Positions 48,994 to 64,000 of a stretch of DNA of 64,000 nt are shown here, piece by piece (within the stretch, counting starts at the first letter, position 1; each line of letters opens with the position of its first letter). Made by a program: the position numbers and the translations under genes. The notes beneath the pieces were generated by a model. It worked only from the letters and a program-made list of their open reading frames with translations, did not search any database and had not been told where the DNA came from. Origin of the DNA: Candidatus Saccharimonadales bacterium. GTDB lineage: Bacteria; Patescibacteriota; Saccharimonadia; Saccharimonadales; DATKHC01. Where the stretch lies: contig DATKHC010000001.1 in the NCBI GenBank assembly GCA_035510465.1, positions 70,799-134,798 of the forward strand, in the 5' to 3' direction.

Positions 48994-50352
48994 TTAATCT
49001 GGCGACACATACCCAACAATGTTATCTGAATAATACCCCGAAAAAGTATCTAAAGACACCACAGAACCGCTAGCTGGGTGCTGTGAGCCGTATGCATAAT
49101 CCGGTGTACCATTTCCACCTTGATCACCACCAATATAATTCGATTCACCACCACTTGACGAAACAAAGATATTGATGTGATACCAAGGATTTGCCTGAGA
49201 GGGGTCGTAGTGTAGGGCTAAGTCGCCAGGTTGAGGAGTATAACCACTGCTCTCAGGATGCCAGTGGAAATTTTGATTTTGTTGACCAAGCACTTGAATA
49301 GAAACTACTGATGGTTGTCTCCAACCACCATCTAACCCGCCAGAAAATGGGTAGCCCGCTTGGTTATATATCCAACTCACGAAATCGGCGCACCATTCTT
49401 CATAATTATTATCGGTATATTTCAAAAACCCAGTAGCTGCGTAGATGAAGTCTGGATATGGTGAGTTATAATTAGGCTCGGCTTTCCATGTGGCGAGCTC
49501 TTTCTGGGCGTTGCAGACGATATTTTGGCGAGTTTGGCTTAAATTGGATGACGAAACAGAACTAGTAGTGCTAGTGGCCGTTGAGCTAGAGCAGTTGACA
49601 GTACTGCTGCTGCAATTCGAACTAGAACTAGTGGTTGATCCACTATTTCCCGATGCTCCACCGTATTTCGACAAAACTGACTGAGCATCACCTTCACGGT
49701 TCAGTAAGTATCCATCGTCTTGAGGAGGGTTGGTTACGCCTGAATTGGCAATGCCCCCTTCTTCTAACTCGGCTTCGACAAACTGAGTTGCTTGGTTTAA
49801 GTCGGTCATCCCCTGCAAGGATTTAACCCAGTCTTGTACTCCAGTAAGGCCAGTACCACCCATTTCACCCCAGACCATGGCTAGTTGGGTAGAAAGTTCG
49901 TAAATGGGGGAGGTAATCTTAAGACTTTGAGCAATTTGTATGGCCTTGCCGCCTGGCGTCCATTGGGCAATACCCCAACCTCCGCTACCAGCGTCATTTG
50001 GGTTGTTGCTATCGCCACCTATCTGCATTTCGGTTGGGTCTACGTGGGATTCATCCATAAGGTTGCCAACCACAGCCGACGCTTGAATCGGGCTTAAACC
50101 GTTTTGTATGAAAAAGTTATATGCTTGTTGTTCGTTATCATTGCCGGTTAGCGCTGTAACAGTAGCGCCTCCTGCACAGACAGCAGCAACAGCGGCGTCT
50201 GGGTCATAAAACGGAGTCTTTCCGAGGAATGAATTGTAATCAGTGCCCGTATAAGCAAGGGCTTGGCTAGAGGGTAAAATAATCAAACAAACAGCCACTA
50301 ACAATAGCAACACAGCACGTTGATAACGGTTAATTTGTCGCAGGCGATGCAC
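48994..50352 (-). CDS. secreted bifunctional peptidoglycan hydrolase: lysozyme-like (phage-tail-lysozyme-type) N-domain plus CHAP C-domain (VirB1 functional analogue)
   Basis: Signal peptide ending ALA-YTG. The N-domain has VVGNLMDESHVDP...GWGIAQWT. A Ser/Thr-rich linker follows. The CHAP Cys context is EWCADFVSWIYNQAGYPF, with a later His (GDLALHY). Confidence 0.72.
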   Translation of the reverse strand: MHRLRQINRYQRAVLLLLVAVCLIILPSSQALAYTGTDYNSFLGKTPFYDPDAAVAAVCAGGATVTALTGNDNEQQAYNFFIQNGLSPIQASAVVGNLMDESHVDPTEMQIGGDSNNPNDAGSGGWGIAQWTPGGKAIQIAQSLKITSPIYELSTQLAMVWGEMGGTGLTGVQDWVKSLQGMTDLNQATQFVEAELEEGGIANSGVTNPPQDDGYLLNREGDAQSVLSKYGGASGNSGSTTSSSSNCSSSTVNCSSSTATSTTSSVSSSNLSQTRQNIVCNAQKELATWKAEPNYNSPYPDFIYAATGFLKYTDNNYEEWCADFVSWIYNQAGYPFSGGLDGGWRQPSVVSIQVLGQQNQNFHWHPESSGYTPQPGDLALHYDPSQANPWYHINIFVSSSGGESNYIGGDQGGNGTPDYAYGSQHPASGSVVSLDTFSGYYSDNIVGYVSPD

Positions 50353-53069: not shown

Positions 53070-54974
53070 TCACTGACGAAGCTCAATATCGCCGGATGGT
53101 TGGTTGAGCTCACCTTGTTCTGGAGCAGCTCCCTGGTTGACTGGGCCAGGAGTAGTACTAATTAGACCGGCCTCAGTCTGGCTGGCTACCACTTGGATAT
53201 GAACATGGTTCTGTCCAGCGAAAAACAAACCCTGGCCGATAGGGAACTGACTTAAACGTTTTGTTTCCTCTGAAGTTAGCTTAAAAACATTCGACAATAG
53301 ATCAACGGCTGATGGAGACTGTTTAAGCAACAATTGCATTGAAGCGTTGGCTACAATTGCCCGGCCCATTCTCGAGCCGATAAAATCTTCAACATCCTGG
53401 CTAATAGTGGTAATGCCTAAATTATATTTTCTGGCTCGTTTGGCCAGAGAAAACATAAAGTTAGCTGAATCTTCATATTTCATTAACTGCCAGGCCTCGT
53501 CGATTACTAAAAGTCGTTTTTTCTGATCAGTTTTAGTCTTATTCCAGATATAGTTCAACACTATATACATGGCTACAGGCCGCAGTTCATCCTCAAGGTC
53601 TCTAATATTAAAAACTACCATAGGGTTATTTATGTTGATGTTGCTTTGCTGAGAAAATATACCCGCAAATGTCCCCGAGGTATATTTACGTAACCTTTGG
53701 GCGAGTTGTGGCCCAGTGCCTCCCATGTGCAGTAAAACATCGTACAGGTCAGTAATGGTTGGTGGGGTACCCGTATGGGTGAGCGGATCGTTGCTAATGC
53801 CAGCGTTAGAGTAGGTTTGAATTAGGGCACTATCGAGGTCTGATTCCTCAACTGGGGACAAAGCCGGTACTACCGCACTAGTAGTGTTGCCCAACATCTG
53901 AACTTGAGCGCCTCCCATCATTAGCCTAAGTAGTCCATGAAGAGTAATAAGATTACTCCGCAATGCATTGTCAGCTTCTTCGGTGTCAATTACCTGTGGC
54001 AAATCAAACGGATTAATTCTGACACTGGAATTTAGACTAAGACGTACGTAAGCTCCTCCTACCGCCTCAGACATTCTTTGGTACTCATTTTCTGGGTCGA
54101 TGATAAACACCTCAGTCCCAAACATGATACTTCTAAGAGCTTCCAATTTTACGGCAAATGACTTGCCGGCTCCGGATTTGGCAAATACAACTGAGTTGCT
54201 ATTTTCTAAACTGAATCTATCAAACAAGACCAACCCCGAATTATGCATATTAACGCCGTATAAAATACCCTTGTCGTCGCTTAAATTAGCGCTAGTGAAA
54301 GGGAAACTAGTACTCAGTGCGCCAGTCCCGAAGTTACGCCTGATTTGTAGTTCGTCAGTTGCTTGTGGGATTGTGCTATTTAGGCCTTGTTCTTGTTGAG
54401 CGGAGGCGGGTTTAGAATAGATTAATTGCTGGCCGAGTAGTGTTTCGACCTTATGGCCAACAAATTCGAGCTCATCCAAGCTGCCTCCAAAAATAGTGAA
54501 ATAGAAACCGAGCCTGAAGAAATGTTCTTCGCCAACCTGAAGCTTGTCCCTCATTTCCTCAGCATCAGATATAGCGGCTTGTTTACCCGGATCTCTAACA
54601 CGACCTTTTTCGGCGTCAATTTGTAGCCCAGCTTCTAGCTGGCCAACCTTTTTTCTCAAGTTCTCTAAAACGACCTGAGCGTTGACGGGGTATATGAAGT
54701 GGGATATATCTATAACCTCATCTATGTTAATAAGTGGGCTTAACCAGCCAGTAGAAACTTGTCTTGGATACCCATAAACGTAGTAGCTACGGGCATATCG
54801 GGTGCCAATTTGGAAATAGTTGCTTTGAAAGTCTATAAAACTTGGAGCTATGAAATCACGAAGAGCAGTTATGCCTTTTTCAAATGCCTCATTTACCTCT
54901 TGCTGCTCTCTGAGGCGTTGTTCCTGAACAACGGTTACTGGGTCAATTCGCCTTTTTCTCCACCCTAAAGCCAT
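53070..54974 (-). CDS. virB4: type IV secretion VirB4/TrsE/PrgJ-family ATPase
   Basis: Walker A FAKSGAGKSF, IIDPENEY and Walker B RLLVIDEAWQLM. The N-domain pattern YYVYGYPRQVSTGWLSPL...DISHFIYP is typical of Gram-positive-type VirB4. Confidence 0.9.
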   Translation of the reverse strand: MALGWRKRRIDPVTVVQEQRLREQQEVNEAFEKGITALRDFIAPSFIDFQSNYFQIGTRYARSYYVYGYPRQVSTGWLSPLINIDEVIDISHFIYPVNAQVVLENLRKKVGQLEAGLQIDAEKGRVRDPGKQAAISDAEEMRDKLQVGEEHFFRLGFYFTIFGGSLDELEFVGHKVETLLGQQLIYSKPASAQQEQGLNSTIPQATDELQIRRNFGTGALSTSFPFTSANLSDDKGILYGVNMHNSGLVLFDRFSLENSNSVVFAKSGAGKSFAVKLEALRSIMFGTEVFIIDPENEYQRMSEAVGGAYVRLSLNSSVRINPFDLPQVIDTEEADNALRSNLITLHGLLRLMMGGAQVQMLGNTTSAVVPALSPVEESDLDSALIQTYSNAGISNDPLTHTGTPPTITDLYDVLLHMGGTGPQLAQRLRKYTSGTFAGIFSQQSNININNPMVVFNIRDLEDELRPVAMYIVLNYIWNKTKTDQKKRLLVIDEAWQLMKYEDSANFMFSLAKRARKYNLGITTISQDVEDFIGSRMGRAIVANASMQLLLKQSPSAVDLLSNVFKLTSEETKRLSQFPIGQGLFFAGQNHVHIQVVASQTEAGLISTTPGPVNQGAAPEQGELNQPSGDIELRQ

Positions 54975-54977
54975 ATG

Positions 54978-56003
54978 TTATAACCCCTCTACGTCTAAAT
55001 TAGGTTGAGGAGCCAAACCAGGGCCTTTAGTAACTACAGGGGGGTTTAAATCGTTAAAGTTCTTGAGTTGCTGTCTGACAGCTGTATCAGGGTTGTAGGT
55101 GTCATAGTAAAGTTCAATGAGCTCCTGTGTATCCAGAGGCAAGCCTTTGATATTACATTGAGCCAGCCCTCCTAAAATAGCCTCAACACGAGTTCTAAGC
55201 TCGTCCTTAGCCTTGGCTAAATCGGCCTCATTAATGACTACCGTTTTCTCTTTTTTCGAAAACAGAGCTCCAAGTCCTGTAAAAAAGTTCTTACTTTGAG
55301 CAATAGCTTGTTGAATGTTCTCAACAGGTGAGTAAGGAACGATTATATAAAAACCCTTGTCCATTATGTTGGTATGTTGAGACAAATCGACCATAAAATT
55401 AAGATAATCTTCCATTAAAACCGCCAGCAACATGTTGTCTTGTTCTAGTCGCATTTTGTCCAGTTTGTTTATGTACGGAGAAATATCCACACGCTCGGAG
55501 TGAATGAAAATCTGGATAGGGAAATACATTGCGTTCAAAAAACCCTGGTAGGCAAACTCAACAGCCTCTTTTTCGTCCGGGCTCATAAGGTCGAAATTAA
55601 TCGGTTTTACCATGATGACTGATCTATACGTGCCATCGTTTAAAATCACAATCCCATCTCTAATCTCGGCTATTTGTAGAGCATTTTGAGAACTGTTAGG
55701 GTTAACTTTTTTGGGTATTGGGGCAACTCCTTGCTGGGCTGGTGTGGGTGCGGGTGGCAATTGATTAGCAGAGGGTATAAAAGGTGGCTGCCCAGATACA
55801 GGGGGATTAAAGCTAGCACTGCTACCATTGCTAGGCTGATTAAGAATCTGGTTGGCCTGAGCTTGAAAATCAAAAGTTGGAGCTGCTGGTTCGGTTGGGT
55901 TGTTTGTAAAATCCTGCGCAGAATAAGTCCCATCGGCGTTTAGCACCGTTGGGTCTTGACCAGTTGTGTTACTGTTTGGATTTGTTTTAGGCTCAGGATT
56001 CAT
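54978..56003 (-). CDS. hypothetical T4SS-associated protein: Pro/Gln-rich N-terminus plus domain resembling a VirB4 N-terminal (non-ATPase) domain
   Basis: 341 aa. DGIVILNDGTYRSVIMVKPINFDLMSPDEKEAVEFAYQGFLNAMYFPIQIFIHSERVD resembles the N-terminus of Tn916-class VirB4 proteins, from memory. No Walker motifs. It ends 3 nt before virB4. Confidence 0.45.
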   Translation of the reverse strand: MNPEPKTNPNSNTTGQDPTVLNADGTYSAQDFTNNPTEPAAPTFDFQAQANQILNQPSNGSSASFNPPVSGQPPFIPSANQLPPAPTPAQQGVAPIPKKVNPNSSQNALQIAEIRDGIVILNDGTYRSVIMVKPINFDLMSPDEKEAVEFAYQGFLNAMYFPIQIFIHSERVDISPYINKLDKMRLEQDNMLLAVLMEDYLNFMVDLSQHTNIMDKGFYIIVPYSPVENIQQAIAQSKNFFTGLGALFSKKEKTVVINEADLAKAKDELRTRVEAILGGLAQCNIKGLPLDTQELIELYYDTYNPDTAVRQQLKNFNDLNPPVVTKGPGLAPQPNLDVEGL

Positions 56004-56050: not shown

Positions 56051-57115
56051 TTAGTGCAATGATACTACTACTTCTTCAGGGAGATCATCTTTAGGAGGAC
56101 GTTTCTTCGCTTCGCTTGCTATAGTTGCGACACTTTTATTATTATCAGCAGCTAAAGATGACACTTTTTTACTTTGGGCATCGCTTTGTTTAACCCCACT
56201 TTTTTTCAAGCCCGTATCAGTTTTTGATAGCGGCTCCAAAACATGAGTGTGACCGTAAGCTGGGTTAGGCCCTTGGTGTGCTTTCTTGATTTTTTCTGCT
56301 AACTGAGGAGTTATAGATGCGTTTTGAGTACTTTCGTCATCGTCATCACCCGGACGGTAAACAGTTAAGTCAGAAAAAGTTTGATGTCTAGGGTCAGATG
56401 CCTGTAGGGTAGTCGGTTGATTCATGAACCAATAGTCTTGTTTCGTTTGTTTGTTGTCTTTGGACTCGGGGTGGTCAACCAAAGTTTCATGATATTGCCG
56501 TTGTTCGTGTTCGTTTTGCTCAATAGCTTGAGCTAAATGCTGAGATGTCGGATTGGCGTTATCCAAAATATCGTCTTCTAAAGTCACATCATAGCTAGGG
56601 ACGTCCTGCGGTAGAGTACTTACATTTATTAAACGGTCAGAATCCTCCTCGGTAGACATATAGTCTGGTTGGTTATACATATTGACCCCAACGTTTTTTA
56701 CAGCCCAGCCTCTCGTATCAATTGTGTTTGCAAGCGCCTTTAAGCGGCTTTTCGCCTCTGTTTCCGAAAAGTTTTTAGTCATCTGCCGAGCAACAACAGC
56801 AGGAGCAGTAATCTTGACTAACTCTTGATAACCTCCTTGTTTCCAAATCCGTCTTCTGGGTTTCAGAAAAAACCGTACGCGGGCTAGAAGCCATATTTCG
56901 TTTGGTTGATCCCTGCCAAAGGGAATTGCTAGTGCCCCGAATAGGATAATGGGCAAAAACAGTGGAATGATGGCTACTATGCTGATTGAAGCAAGCTTGT
57001 AGTCTATGAACATCAAAACTACAGTTATGCCTGCGTAAATGAACTGACGCAGGGTCAGGGGCCCGAGTAGCTTATCCTCCGCTTCTATGTCTTGTATTAC
57101 TTTATAAGTTGCCAT
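56051..57115 (-). CDS. PrgI-family (VirB3-like) membrane protein with long C-terminal extension
   Basis: The N-terminal MATYKVIQDIEAEDKLLGPLTLRQFIYAG followed by two TM helices matches the PrgI pattern. The remaining 250 aa or so are polar and charged. Confidence 0.6.
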   Translation of the reverse strand: MATYKVIQDIEAEDKLLGPLTLRQFIYAGITVVLMFIDYKLASISIVAIIPLFLPIILFGALAIPFGRDQPNEIWLLARVRFFLKPRRRIWKQGGYQELVKITAPAVVARQMTKNFSETEAKSRLKALANTIDTRGWAVKNVGVNMYNQPDYMSTEEDSDRLINVSTLPQDVPSYDVTLEDDILDNANPTSQHLAQAIEQNEHEQRQYHETLVDHPESKDNKQTKQDYWFMNQPTTLQASDPRHQTFSDLTVYRPGDDDDESTQNASITPQLAEKIKKAHQGPNPAYGHTHVLEPLSKTDTGLKKSGVKQSDAQSKKVSSLAADNNKSVATIASEAKKRPPKDDLPEEVVVSLH

Positions 57116-57154: not shown

Positions 57155-60127
57155 CTACGCCGGTGGTTCGGTAGGTGGTCCTTGTGGTTGTCCTGTGCCA
57201 CTGGCTATGTTCTGATCTGTAAACTGACCACCTCTACCTCTTAAGTTCTCTTTCTGATAATCCTCTATTTCCTTGGCCAAACCCATTATCCTATTGACAG
57301 CCTCTTCAGCAAATTGTTTAGTCTTAGGATCAGTATAAGCCCCAGGTGCGTAGGTCATAGCCAATTGTTCCAAAGAAGCTCGTCTTTCTCTGTCGGCTCT
57401 CTGGTTGATAATAACGACTTGATCTTGTGCTTCTTGCTGGGCCTGCGCCTGAACCGCGGGAGGCTGATTTGCAGCAGCAGCAACTATTTGTTGAGCTACT
57501 CGTTGACCCTCAGCAGTAGCATTTGCCTTTACGTTGCCAACGCGTTCGGCAATACCTTCCATGGATTCTGCAACGGCGTCAAATGAAGTACCATCCTTAC
57601 GATATTCAGTGTACGGCTTAAGACTGTTTGTCACGCTTGGGCCTCCTCTAGCCAAATTGGCACCAAGTCTTTGGCGTGCGTCGGTTGGTTTTTTATCATA
57701 TAAGGTTTGGTAACTACTGACGACATTGTTTTTCAGTTCCGAAGTGTAAGTTATGTAGTTTCCAGCGTTCTTTGAGGTGAAGATTAGATCTCCCCAAGCC
57801 GCGGCCTTGGCTGATCTATCTTGCTGCGAGGTTCCGTACATATCATTTAGTTTTTCGAGGGAAGCACCAGATAGTTTACCAAAACTCGCATTTACCTTCA
57901 TGGCACCTAGGATCATATCTTTTCGGCCAGCATATTTAGCATACATGGCTAAACCATCGGCCTTGTCAGTTTCGCCTGCATCTCTCAGCTCTTTAACACG
58001 ATTTTGTAGTGATCCTAGAGTACCGCCGTGATTTATGAACTCATTTCCTGACCCATCGTCTAACAATCCCTCTTGTTGGAGAGTCTTCGCGGCTTCGTTG
58101 ATACTCCCTGCCATACCGGTAGATAAGGCGGACCGACCTTTCAGGGCGTGCTTTCCTGGGAGTAGTGCTGAAGGCTGAGTAACATATGCGAGCCCAGCGT
58201 TTAAACCCCTGTTGTATCTCTCGTTAAATCTCTGACCCCTCTTAAACTTATTAATACCTGGGATCTTGGCTCCAGGGTACCTGTTTTCTCTCTTCATCTT
58301 ACCCCAGTTTTCGGCCAATTTCCTCTTTCTAAAGTTATTAAGTGGCTTATTGGCGGCTCGCTGCAAATGTGTAGCCAGACTACCAGTTGCGGACAATAAA
58401 CCCCCAGCCCACTTAAACGTAAACGGAATCATAAAGTATGGTCCGAAATAGGCGATGATGGCAACCATCTCTTGAACTAGGCCAGTATTACCCCCCGAGG
58501 TAGTTACAGCCGCAAACACTCGACCAATCGCGATTATACCGGAGATGATTGGGAACATTAGAAGGGCTTTGCTTAGATTTTCCCACCACAATTTCCATAC
58601 TCTCTGGGTGCCGGGAAGGATATACATGGCAATAGCAATGGGTGCAAAAATTGCTAGGAATACTACAAGAATCTCTCGAAAGGTTAACAGAACAAAGGCC
58701 AAAATTACCGCTATAGCAGCAGTCAAAACAATGCTCAAGATACCAATAAGACTCAAACCTACCAAACTGGCTGCGCTCAGCAGAACCAGTGCTGTCGAGC
58801 CAGTTTGACCGATTTGTATCGTACCAATGGACGTAAACGGTGTATAAATAAGTGCTCTAATACCTTGCCCCAGTCCATCAGAAACCTGAATCAATACCTG
58901 TATTATTTGCCAGGACAGGGAAATGCCAATAACAGCAATTAACATACGAGGCAGCACTTTTTTAATGGTGTAGGCATCAAAAGCTTCGTAACCCAAAGCC
59001 TGTGATATAACCATTACTAAAGCCGCTATAACGACTATGGCAATTGCGAGAGTTCGTAGACTTTCCCAAGCTTTATAGAAACCGTTACTCCCGGCTTGCT
59101 GGGCAGGTGTGTTTGATTGCCCGGCACAATTTGGGTTCTGTGACCCAGCTATCGTGCCGTTAAAGTACTGACAGCCATTTATATCTAACATACCAACTAT
59201 TGCGCTGTCCAAAGTGCCGATTAACTTAGATGCAGTATCGACGATCGGACAAAACAACCAAGTCAGAGGATTAAAATCAACGACACAATTCAATGCAGGT
59301 CCGGATTCGGCTTGCGCACTGCTTGGAGTACCAGAAGGAGGGCCAGGTGCGGTTAAGGAAGCAAGGGTATAGGCGCCATTTTGAACTGAGCCACCATTTG
59401 GGCAGTTATAGTTGTATTCTGCCGCTACAGTAGCCGTTAGACCACTCGGTAGAGTTCCATATCCATGACCACAATTTTGATAAACCGAGATGCTTGGCGG
59501 AGTATAGTTCTCGTCGGCATTAGAGTTGCTGAAAGTTGGGCTACCCCATTCTTGGGAATCTGAAGGTTCACCCGGATAGCATGGTACGTAGTATGGTCCA
59601 ACTTGACCAATGGTAAAACCACTAGAATCTACAACTGAAAATGTCCAATCGTTTTGGGGTGTGTCTGTACATGCAGCCAGAGATCCAGCCGCAGTGCCAC
59701 TGCCACTGGTGGCTTCATAAAAGGTTCTATCATCCCCCGTAACAATAATCTCGTAGGTATTTGTTAGCGGTTCAGTAACTGGTGTTTCATTACAATGTCC
59801 TTCTTGTTTAGGTGGGCAGGTAGGCGTTACTTGCTGGGTTGTTACTTGGTTGCCGCTTACTGACAGAGTCCCAGTTGAATTACCGCCATCGGGACCAGGG
59901 GAAGGAGCAGCCTGCCGAGTTGCGATTACAGTGACCCCAGAACCGCTGACAGTCGAGGGATTAAGATGAATGAAAAACTCCTCATAGTTAGAAGGAACAC
60001 CTACAGGAGTCTGAACAGGAGTATCACCCAAAACTTTATGATTGCCCAGGAACAAGAAGAACCCCATGGCAACTAATCCAGTCAAGAAGACAATATTTAA
60101 ACTGATTTTCAATTTGTGTTTTAACAT
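57155..60127 (-). CDS. giant polytopic VirB6/TrbL-like channel protein (PrgH/TcpH/ConG analogue) with Cys-containing ectodomain and large C-terminal cytoplasmic domain
   Basis: 990 aa. The signal/anchor is followed by a roughly 320-aa Cys-, Gly-, Pro- and Thr-rich N-domain. A block of 6-7 TM helices (aa 355-590) is Gly/Ala/Ile-rich like TrbL/VirB6. A 400-aa hydrophilic tail ends the protein. It is the first gene of the operon. Confidence 0.55.
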   Translation of the reverse strand: MLKHKLKISLNIVFLTGLVAMGFFLFLGNHKVLGDTPVQTPVGVPSNYEEFFIHLNPSTVSGSGVTVIATRQAAPSPGPDGGNSTGTLSVSGNQVTTQQVTPTCPPKQEGHCNETPVTEPLTNTYEIIVTGDDRTFYEATSGSGTAAGSLAACTDTPQNDWTFSVVDSSGFTIGQVGPYYVPCYPGEPSDSQEWGSPTFSNSNADENYTPPSISVYQNCGHGYGTLPSGLTATVAAEYNYNCPNGGSVQNGAYTLASLTAPGPPSGTPSSAQAESGPALNCVVDFNPLTWLFCPIVDTASKLIGTLDSAIVGMLDINGCQYFNGTIAGSQNPNCAGQSNTPAQQAGSNGFYKAWESLRTLAIAIVVIAALVMVISQALGYEAFDAYTIKKVLPRMLIAVIGISLSWQIIQVLIQVSDGLGQGIRALIYTPFTSIGTIQIGQTGSTALVLLSAASLVGLSLIGILSIVLTAAIAVILAFVLLTFREILVVFLAIFAPIAIAMYILPGTQRVWKLWWENLSKALLMFPIISGIIAIGRVFAAVTTSGGNTGLVQEMVAIIAYFGPYFMIPFTFKWAGGLLSATGSLATHLQRAANKPLNNFRKRKLAENWGKMKRENRYPGAKIPGINKFKRGQRFNERYNRGLNAGLAYVTQPSALLPGKHALKGRSALSTGMAGSINEAAKTLQQEGLLDDGSGNEFINHGGTLGSLQNRVKELRDAGETDKADGLAMYAKYAGRKDMILGAMKVNASFGKLSGASLEKLNDMYGTSQQDRSAKAAAWGDLIFTSKNAGNYITYTSELKNNVVSSYQTLYDKKPTDARQRLGANLARGGPSVTNSLKPYTEYRKDGTSFDAVAESMEGIAERVGNVKANATAEGQRVAQQIVAAAANQPPAVQAQAQQEAQDQVVIINQRADRERRASLEQLAMTYAPGAYTDPKTKQFAEEAVNRIMGLAKEIEDYQKENLRGRGGQFTDQNIASGTGQPQGPPTEPPA

Positions 60128-60413: not shown

Positions 60414-61112
60414 ATGAAAGTTATCAGAAGCACACTAAACTTATTTGCAAAAACCTCTTTTTTGAATTCAATTTCGTTAATCCTGGCCCTAGTTTTTGGG
60501 ATATCGATATTTCAAGGGCATACTTTTGCCGCATCTGGAGGAGTGTGCCATGACAGTTTTTCGAACATTTCCTACAAGTGTGGCACAGCGGGCATTAACC
60601 CCTGTAGTTTTATTCCGATACAGGGGCAAAGTCCAAGCGGTCAGGGTAATTGTGACCCTTCGGCGTGTGCAAGCCAATCATGTCCTTCAGCCTCAATTTG
60701 GACATTTGACCCAACTCAGTGTTATCTTCTGTCCACTGTGCCCAACAGTTCTGCTGAGCAGTGGGTAGGTGGTCAAAATTGCTCAGGCGCAGACTACACA
60801 ACTAATGTTCAATCTACCACCATACCATCCAACGTAACTCCACCGGATGCAGCAGCTAACTGTAGTACTAATTGTAACTTGATAACTGAATACTTAAATC
60901 CAATAATCAATTTCTTGTCTGCGGCAGTTGGCATAGTGGTCGTTATGATGATCGTTGTTGGCGGTATTCAATATTCGTCATCCGGCGGTAACCCGCAATC
61001 CGCAGCAGCCGCTAAGAAAAGAATAGCCAATGCTATTTTAGCCGCTTTTGCCTTTTTGTTTTTGTATGGCTTTCTACAGTTTATAGTTCCCGGGGGACTT
61101 TTTAATGGCTAG
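60414..61112 (+). CDS. VirB2/TrbC-like T4SS pilin paralogue 1, with extended 10-Cys ectodomain
   Basis: Signal peptide ending TFA-AS. A 130-aa head with 10 Cys is followed by a C-terminal TM-loop-TM hairpin (IVVVMMIVVGGIQYSSSGGNPQS...AILAAFAFLFLYGF). Confidence 0.65.
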   Translation: MKVIRSTLNLFAKTSFLNSISLILALVFGISIFQGHTFAASGGVCHDSFSNISYKCGTAGINPCSFIPIQGQSPSGQGNCDPSACASQSCPSASIWTFDPTQCYLLSTVPNSSAEQWVGGQNCSGADYTTNVQSTTIPSNVTPPDAAANCSTNCNLITEYLNPIINFLSAAVGIVVVMMIVVGGIQYSSSGGNPQSAAAAKKRIANAILAAFAFLFLYGFLQFIVPGGLFNG

Positions 61113-61134
61113 GCCAAAGGACTAAGATATAGAC

Positions 61135-61551
61135 GTGGATATTTTTTCTTCAATCGCACCAGCAATTAAACTGTTTGCTGACAGTTGCGGAGGTAGTAGT
61201 ACTACCTTCTTTGGTTTACCAGTTTGGTATAAATACCTAGCGATTAAAGCGAGTTCGACCAGCGCTTGTAACTTCAACGGCTTTAGTTTGTTCAACGGAA
61301 GTAATTTTGCCCCAGATAATATACTGCTAATTCTCTTAGCCGTACTTGACGACCTATTAATTATTGCTGGCATTGTTGCGGTAGTCTTTGTTATATATGG
61401 TGGCGTTCGCTATATCCTAAGTAGCGGAGAGCCAGAGAACGTAAAAGCAGCTCAATCAACTATCCTCAATGCGTTAATAGGGCTAGTAATTAGCGCAGTA
61501 GCTGCTACTCTTGTGAATTACATTGGTTTTGCCTTTGGTGGCGGAAAATAA
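61135..61551 (+). CDS. VirB2/TrbC-like T4SS pilin paralogue 2 (no obvious cleavable signal peptide)
   Basis: GTG start. 2 Cys in the N-terminal part. The motif FFGLPVWYKYL is present. Hairpin IVAVVFVIYGGVRYILSSGEPENVKAAQSTILNALIGLVISAV. Confidence 0.6.
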   Translation: MDIFSSIAPAIKLFADSCGGSSTTFFGLPVWYKYLAIKASSTSACNFNGFSLFNGSNFAPDNILLILLAVLDDLLIIAGIVAVVFVIYGGVRYILSSGEPENVKAAQSTILNALIGLVISAVAATLVNYIGFAFGGGK

Positions 61552-61561
61552 AGGTTGTAAA

Positions 61562-62029
61562 GTGGCTAAATTCAAGACCCAATCACCGAAAAGACGACAC
61601 AAACTACCCGTACTGGTACTGTTATTTATTTTTGGGCTAACGCTGATGTTTGGCCGGGCTGCCTCAACCTCCGCGCAATCACTGTCTCTAGGAGATAAGT
61701 TGCTAAATGTAGCACAAACGAGTCCTCCTTGTTCCTGCTCTTCAAGTTCTACAAGCGTAAACCTCTGCTCATTACCTGGAAGTTGCACGGACCTAAGTAA
61801 CCCATCAAACTCAGCAGCTGCTATAAAAACTGCTCTAAACATACTGTTCTCGATACTTGGAGCCATAGCACTACTTATAGTAACCATAGCTGGTTTCAGG
61901 TATGTAATTTCTAGAGGTGAGCCCCAAGAAGTTTCCAAGGCTAAAGACACCATCCTCTACGCCTTAATTGGGCTGGTGGTCTGCATGGCCGCTCTAGCAA
62001 TAGTTAACTTTGTAGCGGGTAACGTATGA
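61562..62029 (+). CDS. VirB2/TrbC-like T4SS pilin paralogue 3
   Basis: The frame is open from 61523, but the GTG at 61562 gives a proper signal peptide (KRRHKLPVLVLLFIFGLTLMFGRAASTSA-QS). 4-Cys head. Hairpin LLIVTIAGFRYVISRGEPQEVSKAKDTILYALIGLVV. Confidence 0.65.
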   Translation: MAKFKTQSPKRRHKLPVLVLLFIFGLTLMFGRAASTSAQSLSLGDKLLNVAQTSPPCSCSSSSTSVNLCSLPGSCTDLSNPSNSAAAIKTALNILFSILGAIALLIVTIAGFRYVISRGEPQEVSKAKDTILYALIGLVVCMAALAIVNFVAGNV

Positions 62030-62439
62030 AGCGTAGACTAAACAAGTTTTTATCTGCAATAACACTAAGCCTATTTCTTGCGGCTCCCCTTATAGCATTG
62101 CCAGCAAAAATGGCTTTGGCGGACCCAAACGCTCAATTTAATCAAATCTGCTCTGACCCCAACGCCGCTAGTTCACCTATCTGTAAAGATGCACCCAGCA
62201 CTGATCCTCTGACAAACGGGGGCAGTGGCATCCTAGATGACGTTACTAACGTAATCGCCTTAGTTGCAGGTGTAGCAGCCGTTATTATGATCATCGTGGG
62301 CGGGCTAATGTATGTATTGTCTGGCGGTGAGTCCCAAAGGGTAAATTCGGCTAAAAACACTATACTTTTTGCTATCATTGGAATTGTCGTTATAGTTTTA
62401 GCAAGAGCACTAATTGTCTATGTAGTAACACAGGTATAA
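62026..62439 (+). CDS. VirB2/TrbC-like T4SS pilin paralogue 4
   Basis: Signal peptide ending MALA-DP. 2-Cys loop ICSDPNAASSPIC. Hairpin VIMIIVGGLMYVLSGGESQRVNSAKNTILFAIIGIVV. ATGA overlap with paralogue 3. Confidence 0.7.
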   Translation: MKRRLNKFLSAITLSLFLAAPLIALPAKMALADPNAQFNQICSDPNAASSPICKDAPSTDPLTNGGSGILDDVTNVIALVAGVAAVIMIIVGGLMYVLSGGESQRVNSAKNTILFAIIGIVVIVLARALIVYVVTQV

Positions 62440-62441
62440 AA

Positions 62442-62846
62442 ATGAAATTTAAATTAAAAATTTTCCTAGTGGCAGCAGCAGTGAGCGTACTTAGTTTTAT
62501 TGGCTTAAGCCCGTCAGTTGCACATGCAAGTACTTTCACAAGCTCATCAGGTCAGACAATTTGTCAAGGAGTTGGGGAGATTGATAGCTCAGGTAATTGT
62601 GATGCTGCGGGTGGTACATCCGACCTGAGTAAAATTATAGGTACAGTCCTAAATATATTGAGCCTAGTCGTAGGTATAGCAGCGGTTGTGATGATAATTG
62701 TGGCGGGTTTACGATATATATTATCGGGAGGTGAATCACAAAACGTTAACAATGCCAAAAACACTTTAATTTACGCTGTAGTTGGGCTGGTAGTTGTAGC
62801 CCTAGCTCAAATAATCGTTCATTTTGTAATTAATAGCGTGAGTTAA
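62442..62846 (+). CDS. VirB2/TrbC-like T4SS pilin paralogue 5
   Basis: Signal peptide ending VAHA-ST. 2-Cys loop ICQGVGEIDSSGNC. Hairpin VVMIIVAGLRYILSGGESQNVNNAKNTLIYAVVGLVVVALAQIIVHFV. Confidence 0.7.
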   Translation: MKFKLKIFLVAAAVSVLSFIGLSPSVAHASTFTSSSGQTICQGVGEIDSSGNCDAAGGTSDLSKIIGTVLNILSLVVGIAAVVMIIVAGLRYILSGGESQNVNNAKNTLIYAVVGLVVVALAQIIVHFVINSVS

Positions 62847-62958
62847 AGCCACATGATTTTTAATAAACCTACACCTGAGCTTAAGCTTTTTTAACTTGAG
62901 CTTGGCAAGTAGCTATGATATAAGTAATTACGATATCTCAAGAAAGGCTAGCTTAAAA

Positions 62959-63390
62959 ATGATTAAACGAATAAAAGTTTTGTTAACTACAGTAGGTATG
63001 ATAAGTCTGATGCTATCACCTATGGCTATACCAGTTGCTGTACACGCCGATACCATAACACCAGGAAATATAGCTTGTGGCGCTGACGGTAATTTCACCC
63101 CAGGGGCTGATTGTAGTAACGGTAATACCGCAACTAGCTCAATCGACGGAATAATTCAATTTACTCTAAACATCTTTTCGTTAATTGTTGGTATCGTCGC
63201 TGTCATTATGATTATAGTTGGTGGTCTTAAGTACATTCTCTCTGGCGGTGAGTCTTCCAAAACGGCTGGCGCTAAAGATACCATACTATTCGCTATCATC
63301 GGGTTAGTAGTTGTGGCTCTAGCTCAAATAATTGTTCACTTTGTGCTCTCAAATGTGGCTAACGGTACTAATGGCACTGGCGGAAGCTAA
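62959..63390 (+). CDS. VirB2/TrbC-like T4SS pilin paralogue 6
   Basis: The ATG at 62959 (AGAAAGG upstream) gives a signal peptide ending AVHA-DT. 2-Cys loop ACGADGNFTPGADC. Hairpin VIMIIVGGLKYILSGGESSKTAGAKDTILFAIIGLVVVALAQIIVHFV. Confidence 0.7.
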   Translation: MIKRIKVLLTTVGMISLMLSPMAIPVAVHADTITPGNIACGADGNFTPGADCSNGNTATSSIDGIIQFTLNIFSLIVGIVAVIMIIVGGLKYILSGGESSKTAGAKDTILFAIIGLVVVALAQIIVHFVLSNVANGTNGTGGS

Positions 63391-63468: not shown

Positions 63469-63945
63469 TTATAGAACCTGGATCTTCTTAACAGTTTCTT
63501 GCTTAACTTTAGTAAAGCTGATGGTGAGAACGCCGTCTTTTAGAACTGCTTCAACCTCATCTTCTTTAACTGGGACTGGTAGGGCAATGCTACGAGAGAA
63601 TTCACCCCAGTAACATTCCTGGACAAAATAGTTCTCTACGTCTTCCTCGTTTCCAGCCGAAAGCGTACCTCTGATACTTAGAGTGTTATCTGCAATCGAA
63701 ATATCCAAATCACTCTTGTTAACCCCAGCAGTTCTGGCTTTAACAACTAGCTTTTCTCTAGTCTCGTAAACGTCTACCGCTAACTGACCAGGCACAGTAT
63801 CGTCCTCTTCCCACTCTTCAGCAGCTACAGCAGTAGTTTCTTCTTCACTACCCTCTGGAGCTAAATCCTCATCTCCCAGGAAAGCAGCCGTTAATTCGTC
63901 TTCTTCCATTAGTAGGTCATCATCGTCACGGCTCTTGCGTGCCAT
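63469..63945 (-). CDS. hsp20: small heat-shock protein (Hsp20/alpha-crystallin family) with acidic N-terminal extension
   Basis: Alpha-crystallin domain (LAVDVYETREKLVVKARTAGV...LSIRG...FSRSIALPVPV...AVLKDGVLTISFTK). The ATG at 63945 is preceded by GGAGGG. Confidence 0.88.
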   Translation of the reverse strand: MARKSRDDDDLLMEEDELTAAFLGDEDLAPEGSEEETTAVAAEEWEEDDTVPGQLAVDVYETREKLVVKARTAGVNKSDLDISIADNTLSIRGTLSAGNEEDVENYFVQECYWGEFSRSIALPVPVKEDEVEAVLKDGVLTISFTKVKQETVKKIQVL

Positions 63946-64000
63946 AAGTGCTACCCTCCGCAAATATCAAATAAATTTTAGAATTTGCAATTTTTGTTAC

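Follow-up and report, generated by a model that had tools for sequence, protein, structure and literature searches.

The closest described systems to the locus considered here are VirB4 ATPases in which the N-terminal domain (NTD) and the motor form one polypeptide, and small TrsD/TraD proteins that are encoded beside a short VirB4. In R388, the NTD of VirB4 (TrwK) comprises residues 15-400, VirB3 wraps around the NTD of the central VirB4 and the central-outside VirB4 dimer interface is made of NTDs entirely (PMC9259494), and the tails of VirB8 bind the NTD of the outer VirB4 (PMC9259494; PMC12624023). TrsD of pSK41 and pGO1 and TraD of pIP501 are small proteins lacking a P-loop, encoded between a VirB3-like gene and a short VirB4 of ~670 aa (trsC-trsD-trsE). 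Of the T4SS components of Patescibacteria, TrsD is reported to be the commonest, with 2,272 homologues, 1,664 of them VirB4-associated (Quinonero-Coronel et al. 2025, PMC12102498). The same study lists the TrsD homologue of Ca. Southlakia epibionticum as essential, describes Gracilibacteria homologues that are not VirB4-associated, and states of TrsD that "no function has been assigned" (PMC12102498). Epibiotic growth was shown to require the Saccharibacteria T4SS cluster SEML1_0006-0019 (Wang et al. 2023, PMC10633639). For TrsD/TraD of pSK41/pIP501, a search of the available literature yielded no relevant functional data, and TrsD is not mentioned in the main text of Guglielmini 2014.

A gene of this kind lies in the window, by which we mean the whole 64,000-nucleotide stretch of Candidatus Saccharimonadales DNA that was analysed. 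A sequence-only reading of the window knew of no described equivalent of its product, and on this point it has to be corrected, as the family is NF041427 TrsD/TraD or PF26593 TraC-like and has been described in Patescibacteria (PMC12102498). The gene is already known in the sense that its family is in Pfam and NCBIfam and that both its homology to the VirB4 N-terminus and its association with virB4 are published. The contribution of the present analysis is to show explicitly that the TrsD-like protein and the short VirB4 tile a full VirB4, that split and fused forms coexist within Patescibacteria, and that the junction between the two genes is a conserved coupling site. Very probably, VirB4 is here divided between two genes: the ORF encodes its N-terminal module and, together with the adjacent 634-aa protein, makes one canonical VirB4.

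The TrsD/TraC-like gene and its product

The features of the gene pair are as follows.

54978..56003, minus strand: TrsD / TraC-like gene (341 aa), 100% identical to P0001 (PF26593), with matches to N-terminal parts of VirB4 profiles and to TrsD
55680..56003, minus strand: codons 1-108, P/N/A/Q-rich N-terminal extension, presumably disordered judging by its composition, with no sequence conserved in homologues
55032..55679, minus strand: codons 109-324, folded alpha/beta core, corresponding to the initial half of the VirB4 NTD according to the AF2 model, Foldseek and alignments to P0214 and the Anaerococcus VirB4
53070..54974, minus strand: VirB4 with its first ~200 residues missing (634 aa), matched by VirB4 profiles from 179/752, 282/894 and 239/792 only
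54972..54989, minus strand: junction, with a Shine-Dalgarno (SD)-like GAGGGG (54989-54984), TAA (54980-54978), CAT and the virB4 ATG (54974-54972)

The minus-strand ORF at 54978..56003 is real, with an ATG start, 341 codons and a TAA stop at 54980-54978, and its product is 100% identical to a protein of a Candidatus Saccharimonadales MAG (P0001). With 6,491 homologue clusters at E<=1e-3, and with no fewer than 544 species-level genomes containing relatives, the ORF is a gene far beyond chance. The best 120 of the 6,491 clusters are 247-364 aa in length and 71-77% identical to the folded part, and PF26593 (TraC-like) is a precomputed annotation on P0001 and on all 119 other homologues listed. 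This domain is common to the window protein and to the N-terminus of fused VirB4s of ~900 aa in Patescibacteria, with no difference at the domain level.

The protein consists of an N-terminal tail and a folded core of ~216 aa. Residues 1-108 are of low complexity (P 19%, N 14%, A 11%, Q 10%, S 9%, T 8%), and a scan of the whole ORF for Walker A or GK[ST] found neither, and hence no P-loop. The earlier reading had described a first ~110 aa of low complexity, an absence of Walker motifs and a remainder resembling the non-ATPase N-terminus of VirB4, and all three descriptions stand, the last for residues ~109-324, by the profile and fold matches given below. Among 119 close homologues the tail varies from 16 to 133 aa (median 79), is rich in P, Q, A, N and G, and is unalignable, and sequence conservation begins abruptly at NPNSTQNxLQIAEIRDG. 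Fused forms are without the tail, the module beginning at about residue 13 in P0214, the 898-aa fused protein used for comparison below. The tail can be regarded as a flexible extension without sequence constraint, located where the module would face the membrane.

The position occupied by the tail is filled differently in split homologues elsewhere. In those encoded by plasmids of C. botulinum, B. thuringiensis and Pontibacillus (L003:4827-5612, L004:4872-5858, L001:5884-6708) there is one N-terminal TM helix (KD19 2.1-3.1), which suggests that the tail end of the module faces the membrane. The TrsD of pSK41, very remote in sequence from the window protein, has a short basic stretch ahead of the fold in place of the 108-aa, TM-less P/N/A/Q-rich tail at window positions 55680-56003.

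Homology to the VirB4 N-terminus

The 341-aa ORF and the neighbouring VirB4 were searched against NCBIfam profiles and the profile coordinates were compared. The ORF matches four VirB4-type profiles, in each case at the N-terminal end only: residues 113-223 align to positions 9-120/752 of CD1110, residues 115-239 to positions 19-134/792 of TIGR00929, residues 101-244 to positions 100-255/894 of the Mbov_0397 VirB4 profile (VirB4_plasma), and the match to TraC-F covers positions 98-183/800. The neighbouring VirB4 matches CD1110, TIGR00929 and VirB4_plasma only from 179, 239 and 282 onward, respectively. The coordinates of the two proteins are consecutive and the genes are therefore complementary.

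The same division is seen against individual proteins. ORF residues 104-324 align to residues 13-228 of P0214 (36% identity, E 7e-46) and residues 16-609 of the neighbouring VirB4 to residues 309-886 of the same protein (48% identity), and in P0214-type fusions a Pro-rich linker of ~80 aa joins the two modules at the position of the split. The VirB4 of Anaerococcus pAPRE01 (807 aa, CD1110-family) accommodates the ORF on residues 64-221 and the neighbouring VirB4 on residues 232-783, and an hhalign comparison of a 100-sequence ORF family profile with the Anaerococcus CD1110-family VirB4 placed the match at residues 59-227 (94.9% probability, E 4.5e-8).

The 634-aa VirB4 carries Walker A AKSGAGKS (residues 265-272) and Walker B LLVIDE (residues 488-493), and is laid out as the second half of an NTD (residues ~16-226) followed by an ATPase C-terminal domain (CTD, residues 227-601), the latter aligning to the crystallised C-terminal ATPase domain 4AG5 (chain residues 1-383). 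Some 226 residues precede the motor in the window VirB4 versus ~400 in R388 TrwK, and the shortfall equals the ~216-residue core of the ORF. TrwK maps 1:1 onto TIGR00929 (TrwK residues 11-815 on positions 3-791), and the ORF therefore corresponds approximately to TrwK residues 30-220, the first half of the NTD.

With respect to the VirB4 ATPase family (TIGR00929 / CD1110) and its P-loop CTD, the 341-aa ORF scores far below the cutoffs, and alone it is not a VirB4. Homology to the VirB4 NTD holds for the first half only, the second half being in the neighbouring gene, and the tiling, the conserved split and the existence of fused orthologues identify the two as a split gene pair. The full-length VirB4s, that is, R388 TrwK (PDB 7O41/8RTB) and the CD1110-family VirB4 of Firmicutes ICEs and plasmids, share with the window protein the first half of the NTD by sequence profile and fold, and differ in that this half is here a separate polypeptide with a presumably disordered N-terminal extension of 108 aa.

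The relationship to TrsD was assessed in two ways. On the NCBIfam profile NF041427 (TrsD/TraD) the ORF scores 23.5 bits (E 4.2e-5, positions 21-143/201), below the 200-bit cutoff, versus 227.6 bits for pSK41 TrsD. The alignment of the ORF family profile to pSK41 TrsD by hhalign (91%, E 1e-6) covers TrsD residues 30-216, which is nearly the whole length. By these profile comparisons the window protein is a remote homologue of TrsD outside the narrow staphylococcal/enterococcal subfamily. It belongs to TrsD/TraD in the broad sense of MacSyFinder/CONJScan (PMC12102498), namely a small P-loop-less VirB4-N homologue whose gene sits between a VirB3-like gene and a short VirB4, immediately before the latter. 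The likeness extends to the partner gene, as the match of pSK41 TrsE to VirB4 profiles, like that of the window VirB4, starts only at about position 180-265.

Predicted structure

An AF2 model of residues 100-341 was of good confidence, with a pLDDT of 86.4 and a pTM of 0.74. When it was compared with the PDB by Foldseek, the top 14 matches were all R388 TrwK/VirB4 chains (probability 0.98-1.00, E 5e-4 to 1.6e-2), followed by unrelated proteins with a probability of 0.18 or below. The TM-scores, which are normalised to the query, were modest (0.29-0.47), and the results list no target residue ranges, so that the fold search of the predicted model supports the assignment to VirB4 and does not by itself give the location of the match within VirB4. 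It was the fold search only that found VirB4 in the PDB, as searches of PDB chain sequences with the ORF and with the family profile yielded no meaningful match, and an hhalign comparison of the family profile with TrwK as a single sequence fell short of significance (0.8%); its top local alignment, at TrwK residues 93-140, carries no weight as evidence. A model of fused P0214, built with 62 fused homologues to examine the packing of the two modules, was too poor to be informative (pLDDT 60.5, pTM 0.43), with the middle of the NTD below 50.

The junction with virB4

The stop codon of the 341-aa ORF and the ATG of virB4 are separated by a spacer of 3 nt (CAT), and the last codons of the 341-aa ORF contain the SD-like GAGGGG (54989-54984), 9 nt ahead of the virB4 ATG. 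The conservation of this arrangement was surveyed in 80 loci from species-representative genomes, almost all of them Saccharibacteria. In 77 of the 80 the next gene downstream, on the same strand, encodes a VirB4, and the three loci without a scored downstream VirB4 comprise two that are cut by contig ends and one in which no start codon was found by the script. The stop-to-start gap is between -8 and +4 nt in 66 of these 77 loci, the mode being an overlap of 1 nt (-1, 41 loci). A PrgI-like gene is upstream in 65 of the 66 loci that could be scored for it. Two separate polypeptides are the rule in these loci. The end of the ORF 3 nt before the virB4 start (TAA, CAT, ATG), noted in the earlier reading, was confirmed, the tight spacing that would couple it to virB4 is conserved, and co-occurrence with virB4, which that reading had proposed as a check in related genomes, was found in 77 of 80 loci.

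Split and fused forms

All but one of the best 150 cluster representatives (149) stand alone as proteins of 125-478 aa, the exception being the fused P0214. The split arrangement of PrgI, small protein and a VirB4 of ~620-670 aa also occurs on plasmids of Firmicutes, namely those of Pontibacillus, C. botulinum pRSJ20_1, B. thuringiensis Bt407 and pSK41 (trsC-trsD-trsE), and the tiling is exact in C. botulinum, where the small protein covers positions 48-282 of VirB4_plasma and the ATPase positions 281-875.

A search with P0214 retrieved ~65-70 clusters of fused proteins of 860-910 aa that contain PF26593 and the ATPase domains, originate from Berkelbacteria and other Patescibacteria, and occupy the PrgI-VirB4 operon position. 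Fused VirB4s of the Berkelbacteria type (P0214, 898 aa; L089 4029-6749, 906 aa) thus resemble the window pair in having both modules in the same order and operon position, with 36% identity in the N-module and 48% in the rest, and differ in that the modules are covalently joined via the Pro-rich linker and there is no N-terminal tail. A 582-aa "split" VirB4 that is 83% identical to P0214 (P0336) was considered as a recent fission and was rejected as a gene-calling artefact, the true ORF being a 906-aa fusion. In the complete genome of Ca. Berkelbacteria (CP066695.1) this 906-aa open frame, at L089 4029-6749, starts with the TraC-like module, and the deposited P0336 is truncated, leaving ~955 nt "unannotated."

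Fusion proteins of VirB3 and VirB4 exist (cited in PMC12624023 and PMC12102498). They resemble the present case in showing that gene boundaries near the VirB4 N-terminus shift readily in evolution and that this N-terminus adjoins VirB3, and differ from it in direction, being a fusion rather than a fission. The survey of Patescibacteria in PMC12102498 found none.

Weak tblastn matches of the TrsD-like core were obtained on haloarchaeal plasmids of Halorientalis marina (H21, NZ_CP095490.1, E 3e-4) and Haloprofundus halobius (H30, NZ_CP083668.1, E 0.1), with 23-24% identity over 86-96% of the query, at genes annotated "hypothetical protein." These two proteins may be archaeal relatives of the module.

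A proposed model for a two-gene VirB4

At the level of sequence, the homology, the complementarity, the conserved split with its tight junction and the natural Pro-linked fused orthologues are established. In the proposed scheme the 341-aa protein would supply the first half of the membrane-proximal NTD, and the 634-aa protein the second half together with the P-loop motor. The two would be co-produced by translational coupling of the termination-reinitiation type, and the 341-aa protein would pack non-covalently on the residual NTD of the ATPase, rebuilding a complete VirB4-like NTD. By analogy with R388, the reconstituted NTD may then bind the PrgI/VirB3 membrane protein encoded upstream and may mediate dimerisation of VirB4, docking the ATPase beneath the membrane channel and the site of pilus assembly. 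In that case a large part of the surface by which the motor docks, on PrgI/VirB3 as well as on a second VirB4, would come from the 341-aa protein. The TM helices that replace the tail in the Bacillus and Clostridium homologues suggest that the N-terminal end of the module is directed to the membrane.

This two-gene reading refines existing knowledge and is not a discovery. If TrsD and the short VirB4 are one split VirB4, TrsD acquires a testable structural role, namely that of a VirB3-binding, dimerising half of the NTD, and surveys of VirB4 length and domains that score the ATPase gene only under-describe these systems.

Alternative explanations

The fission may have been more than neutral. 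It is conceivable, if improbable, that the freed N-module and its lineage-specific appendage (P/Q-rich tail or TM helix) form an independently assembling platform at the membrane side, which could, for instance, bind PrgI/VirB3 in advance and then bring in or swap ATPase subunits. If this were true, pilus-bearing monoderm T4SSs would gain a step of assembly or regulation that is absent from systems with a fused VirB4.

Distinctly improbable in our estimation is a module of VirB4-N descent that is no longer docked in the NTD and has an independent role, for example as an assembly or regulatory factor or an adaptor for substrate or pilin, with a stoichiometry of its own and with the tail or TM anchor serving a new interaction. 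The lineage-specific N-terminal additions, which fused forms lack, would fit such a role, as would the Gracilibacteria homologues that are not VirB4-associated (PMC12102498) and the lack of an experimentally assigned function. However, the tight translational coupling favours co-production with the ATPase, the operon position shared by fused and split forms argues for an equivalent function, and neither the sequence nor the length of the tail is conserved, which makes a specific binding role for it unlikely.

It is very improbable that the window encodes a single protein, whether a fused virB4 that has suffered a recent nonsense mutation or a VirB4 of ~976 aa that is produced by programmed readthrough of the TAA. 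The two ORFs of the window are in one frame, with one stop codon and one further codon (CAT) between them, the in-frame TAA-CAT at 54972-54980 resembles a readthrough site, and fused orthologues exist. Yet the frame relation of the small gene to virB4 is distributed 53/13/11 among the 77 loci, the two being in frame in 13 and most commonly overlapping by 1 nt in another frame. The in-frame arrangement in the window is incidental because the frame relation varies among relatives, and for the same reason readthrough across the stop was rejected. Also against a single protein are the split in 77 of 80 related genomes and also in Firmicutes plasmids, the high conservation of both parts (71-77% identity), and the ATG and SD-like motif that virB4 has of its own.

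Equally improbable is the alternative that the sequence-only reading had raised, a free paralogue, a duplicated N-domain acting as an adaptor or stator beside a VirB4 with a complete N-domain; the 341-aa protein is a separate polypeptide with VirB4-N-like fold and sequence, but, contrary to that reading, the adjacent VirB4 lacks the corresponding segment and has the second half of the NTD only, fused and full-length VirB4s are covered by the two proteins in successive stretches, and the likeness to some part of the neighbour that a paralogue should show was found neither by BLASTP of the ORF versus the adjacent 634-aa VirB4 (E >= 1.9) nor by hhalign of the ORF family profile versus the same protein (no match, 0.1%), on which grounds it was rejected. 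Among the options of that reading, a remnant of a split VirB4 is the correct one.

The surrounding T4SS gene cluster

The gene pair lies in a T4SS cluster with the following further members.

56051..57115, minus strand: PrgI/VirB3-like membrane protein, 354 aa, with a PrgI domain at residues 5-90 (PF12666, E 1.3e-9), 47 nt upstream of the 341-aa ORF
57155..60127, minus strand: 990-aa protein in the VirB6/PrgH position, placed by position only, with no family match and with a 943-aa counterpart at that position in L006
50330..53011, minus strand: 893-aa conserved cluster protein downstream of virB4, with no Pfam match and with a 903-aa counterpart at that position in L006
48994..50352, minus strand: cell-wall hydrolase (lysozyme + CHAP) with a VirB1/PrgK-like role (PF18013, 4.8e-20; PF05257 (CHAP), 3.1e-5)
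60414..63390, plus strand: six tandem VirB2-like T4SS pilin genes, divergent from the operon, with PF18895 on all six and an arrangement shared with L006

The synteny of the whole cluster is identical in L006, another Saccharibacteria genome, which has HSP20, six pilins, a ~950-aa protein, PrgI, the TraC-like protein, VirB4 and a ~900-aa protein. The six pilin genes are divergent in sequence and are followed in the window by an HSP20 gene at 63469-63963 (minus strand), as they are in L006, and the six-pilin cluster matches that reported for Ca. Southlakia. The hydrolase gene (48994-50352) shares 23 nt with the end of the 893-aa gene, and its PF05257 (CHAP) score is just under the cutoff (24.8 versus 26 bits). 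At this position L006 has a different protein of 732 aa, and the hydrolase slot therefore appears to be variable between genomes. Neither the 893-aa nor the 990-aa protein gave a significant family match, the former having only a weak one (E 0.009) to an Mbov_0395 pilin-like conjugal transfer protein.

Beyond its PrgI domain, the PrgI/VirB3-like protein at 56051-57115 has a charged, low-complexity C-terminal tail of ~260 residues, and long low-complexity extensions are also found at the N-terminus of the 893-aa protein and at the C-terminus of VirB4. Such extensions appear to be a general trait of the T4SS cluster in the window.
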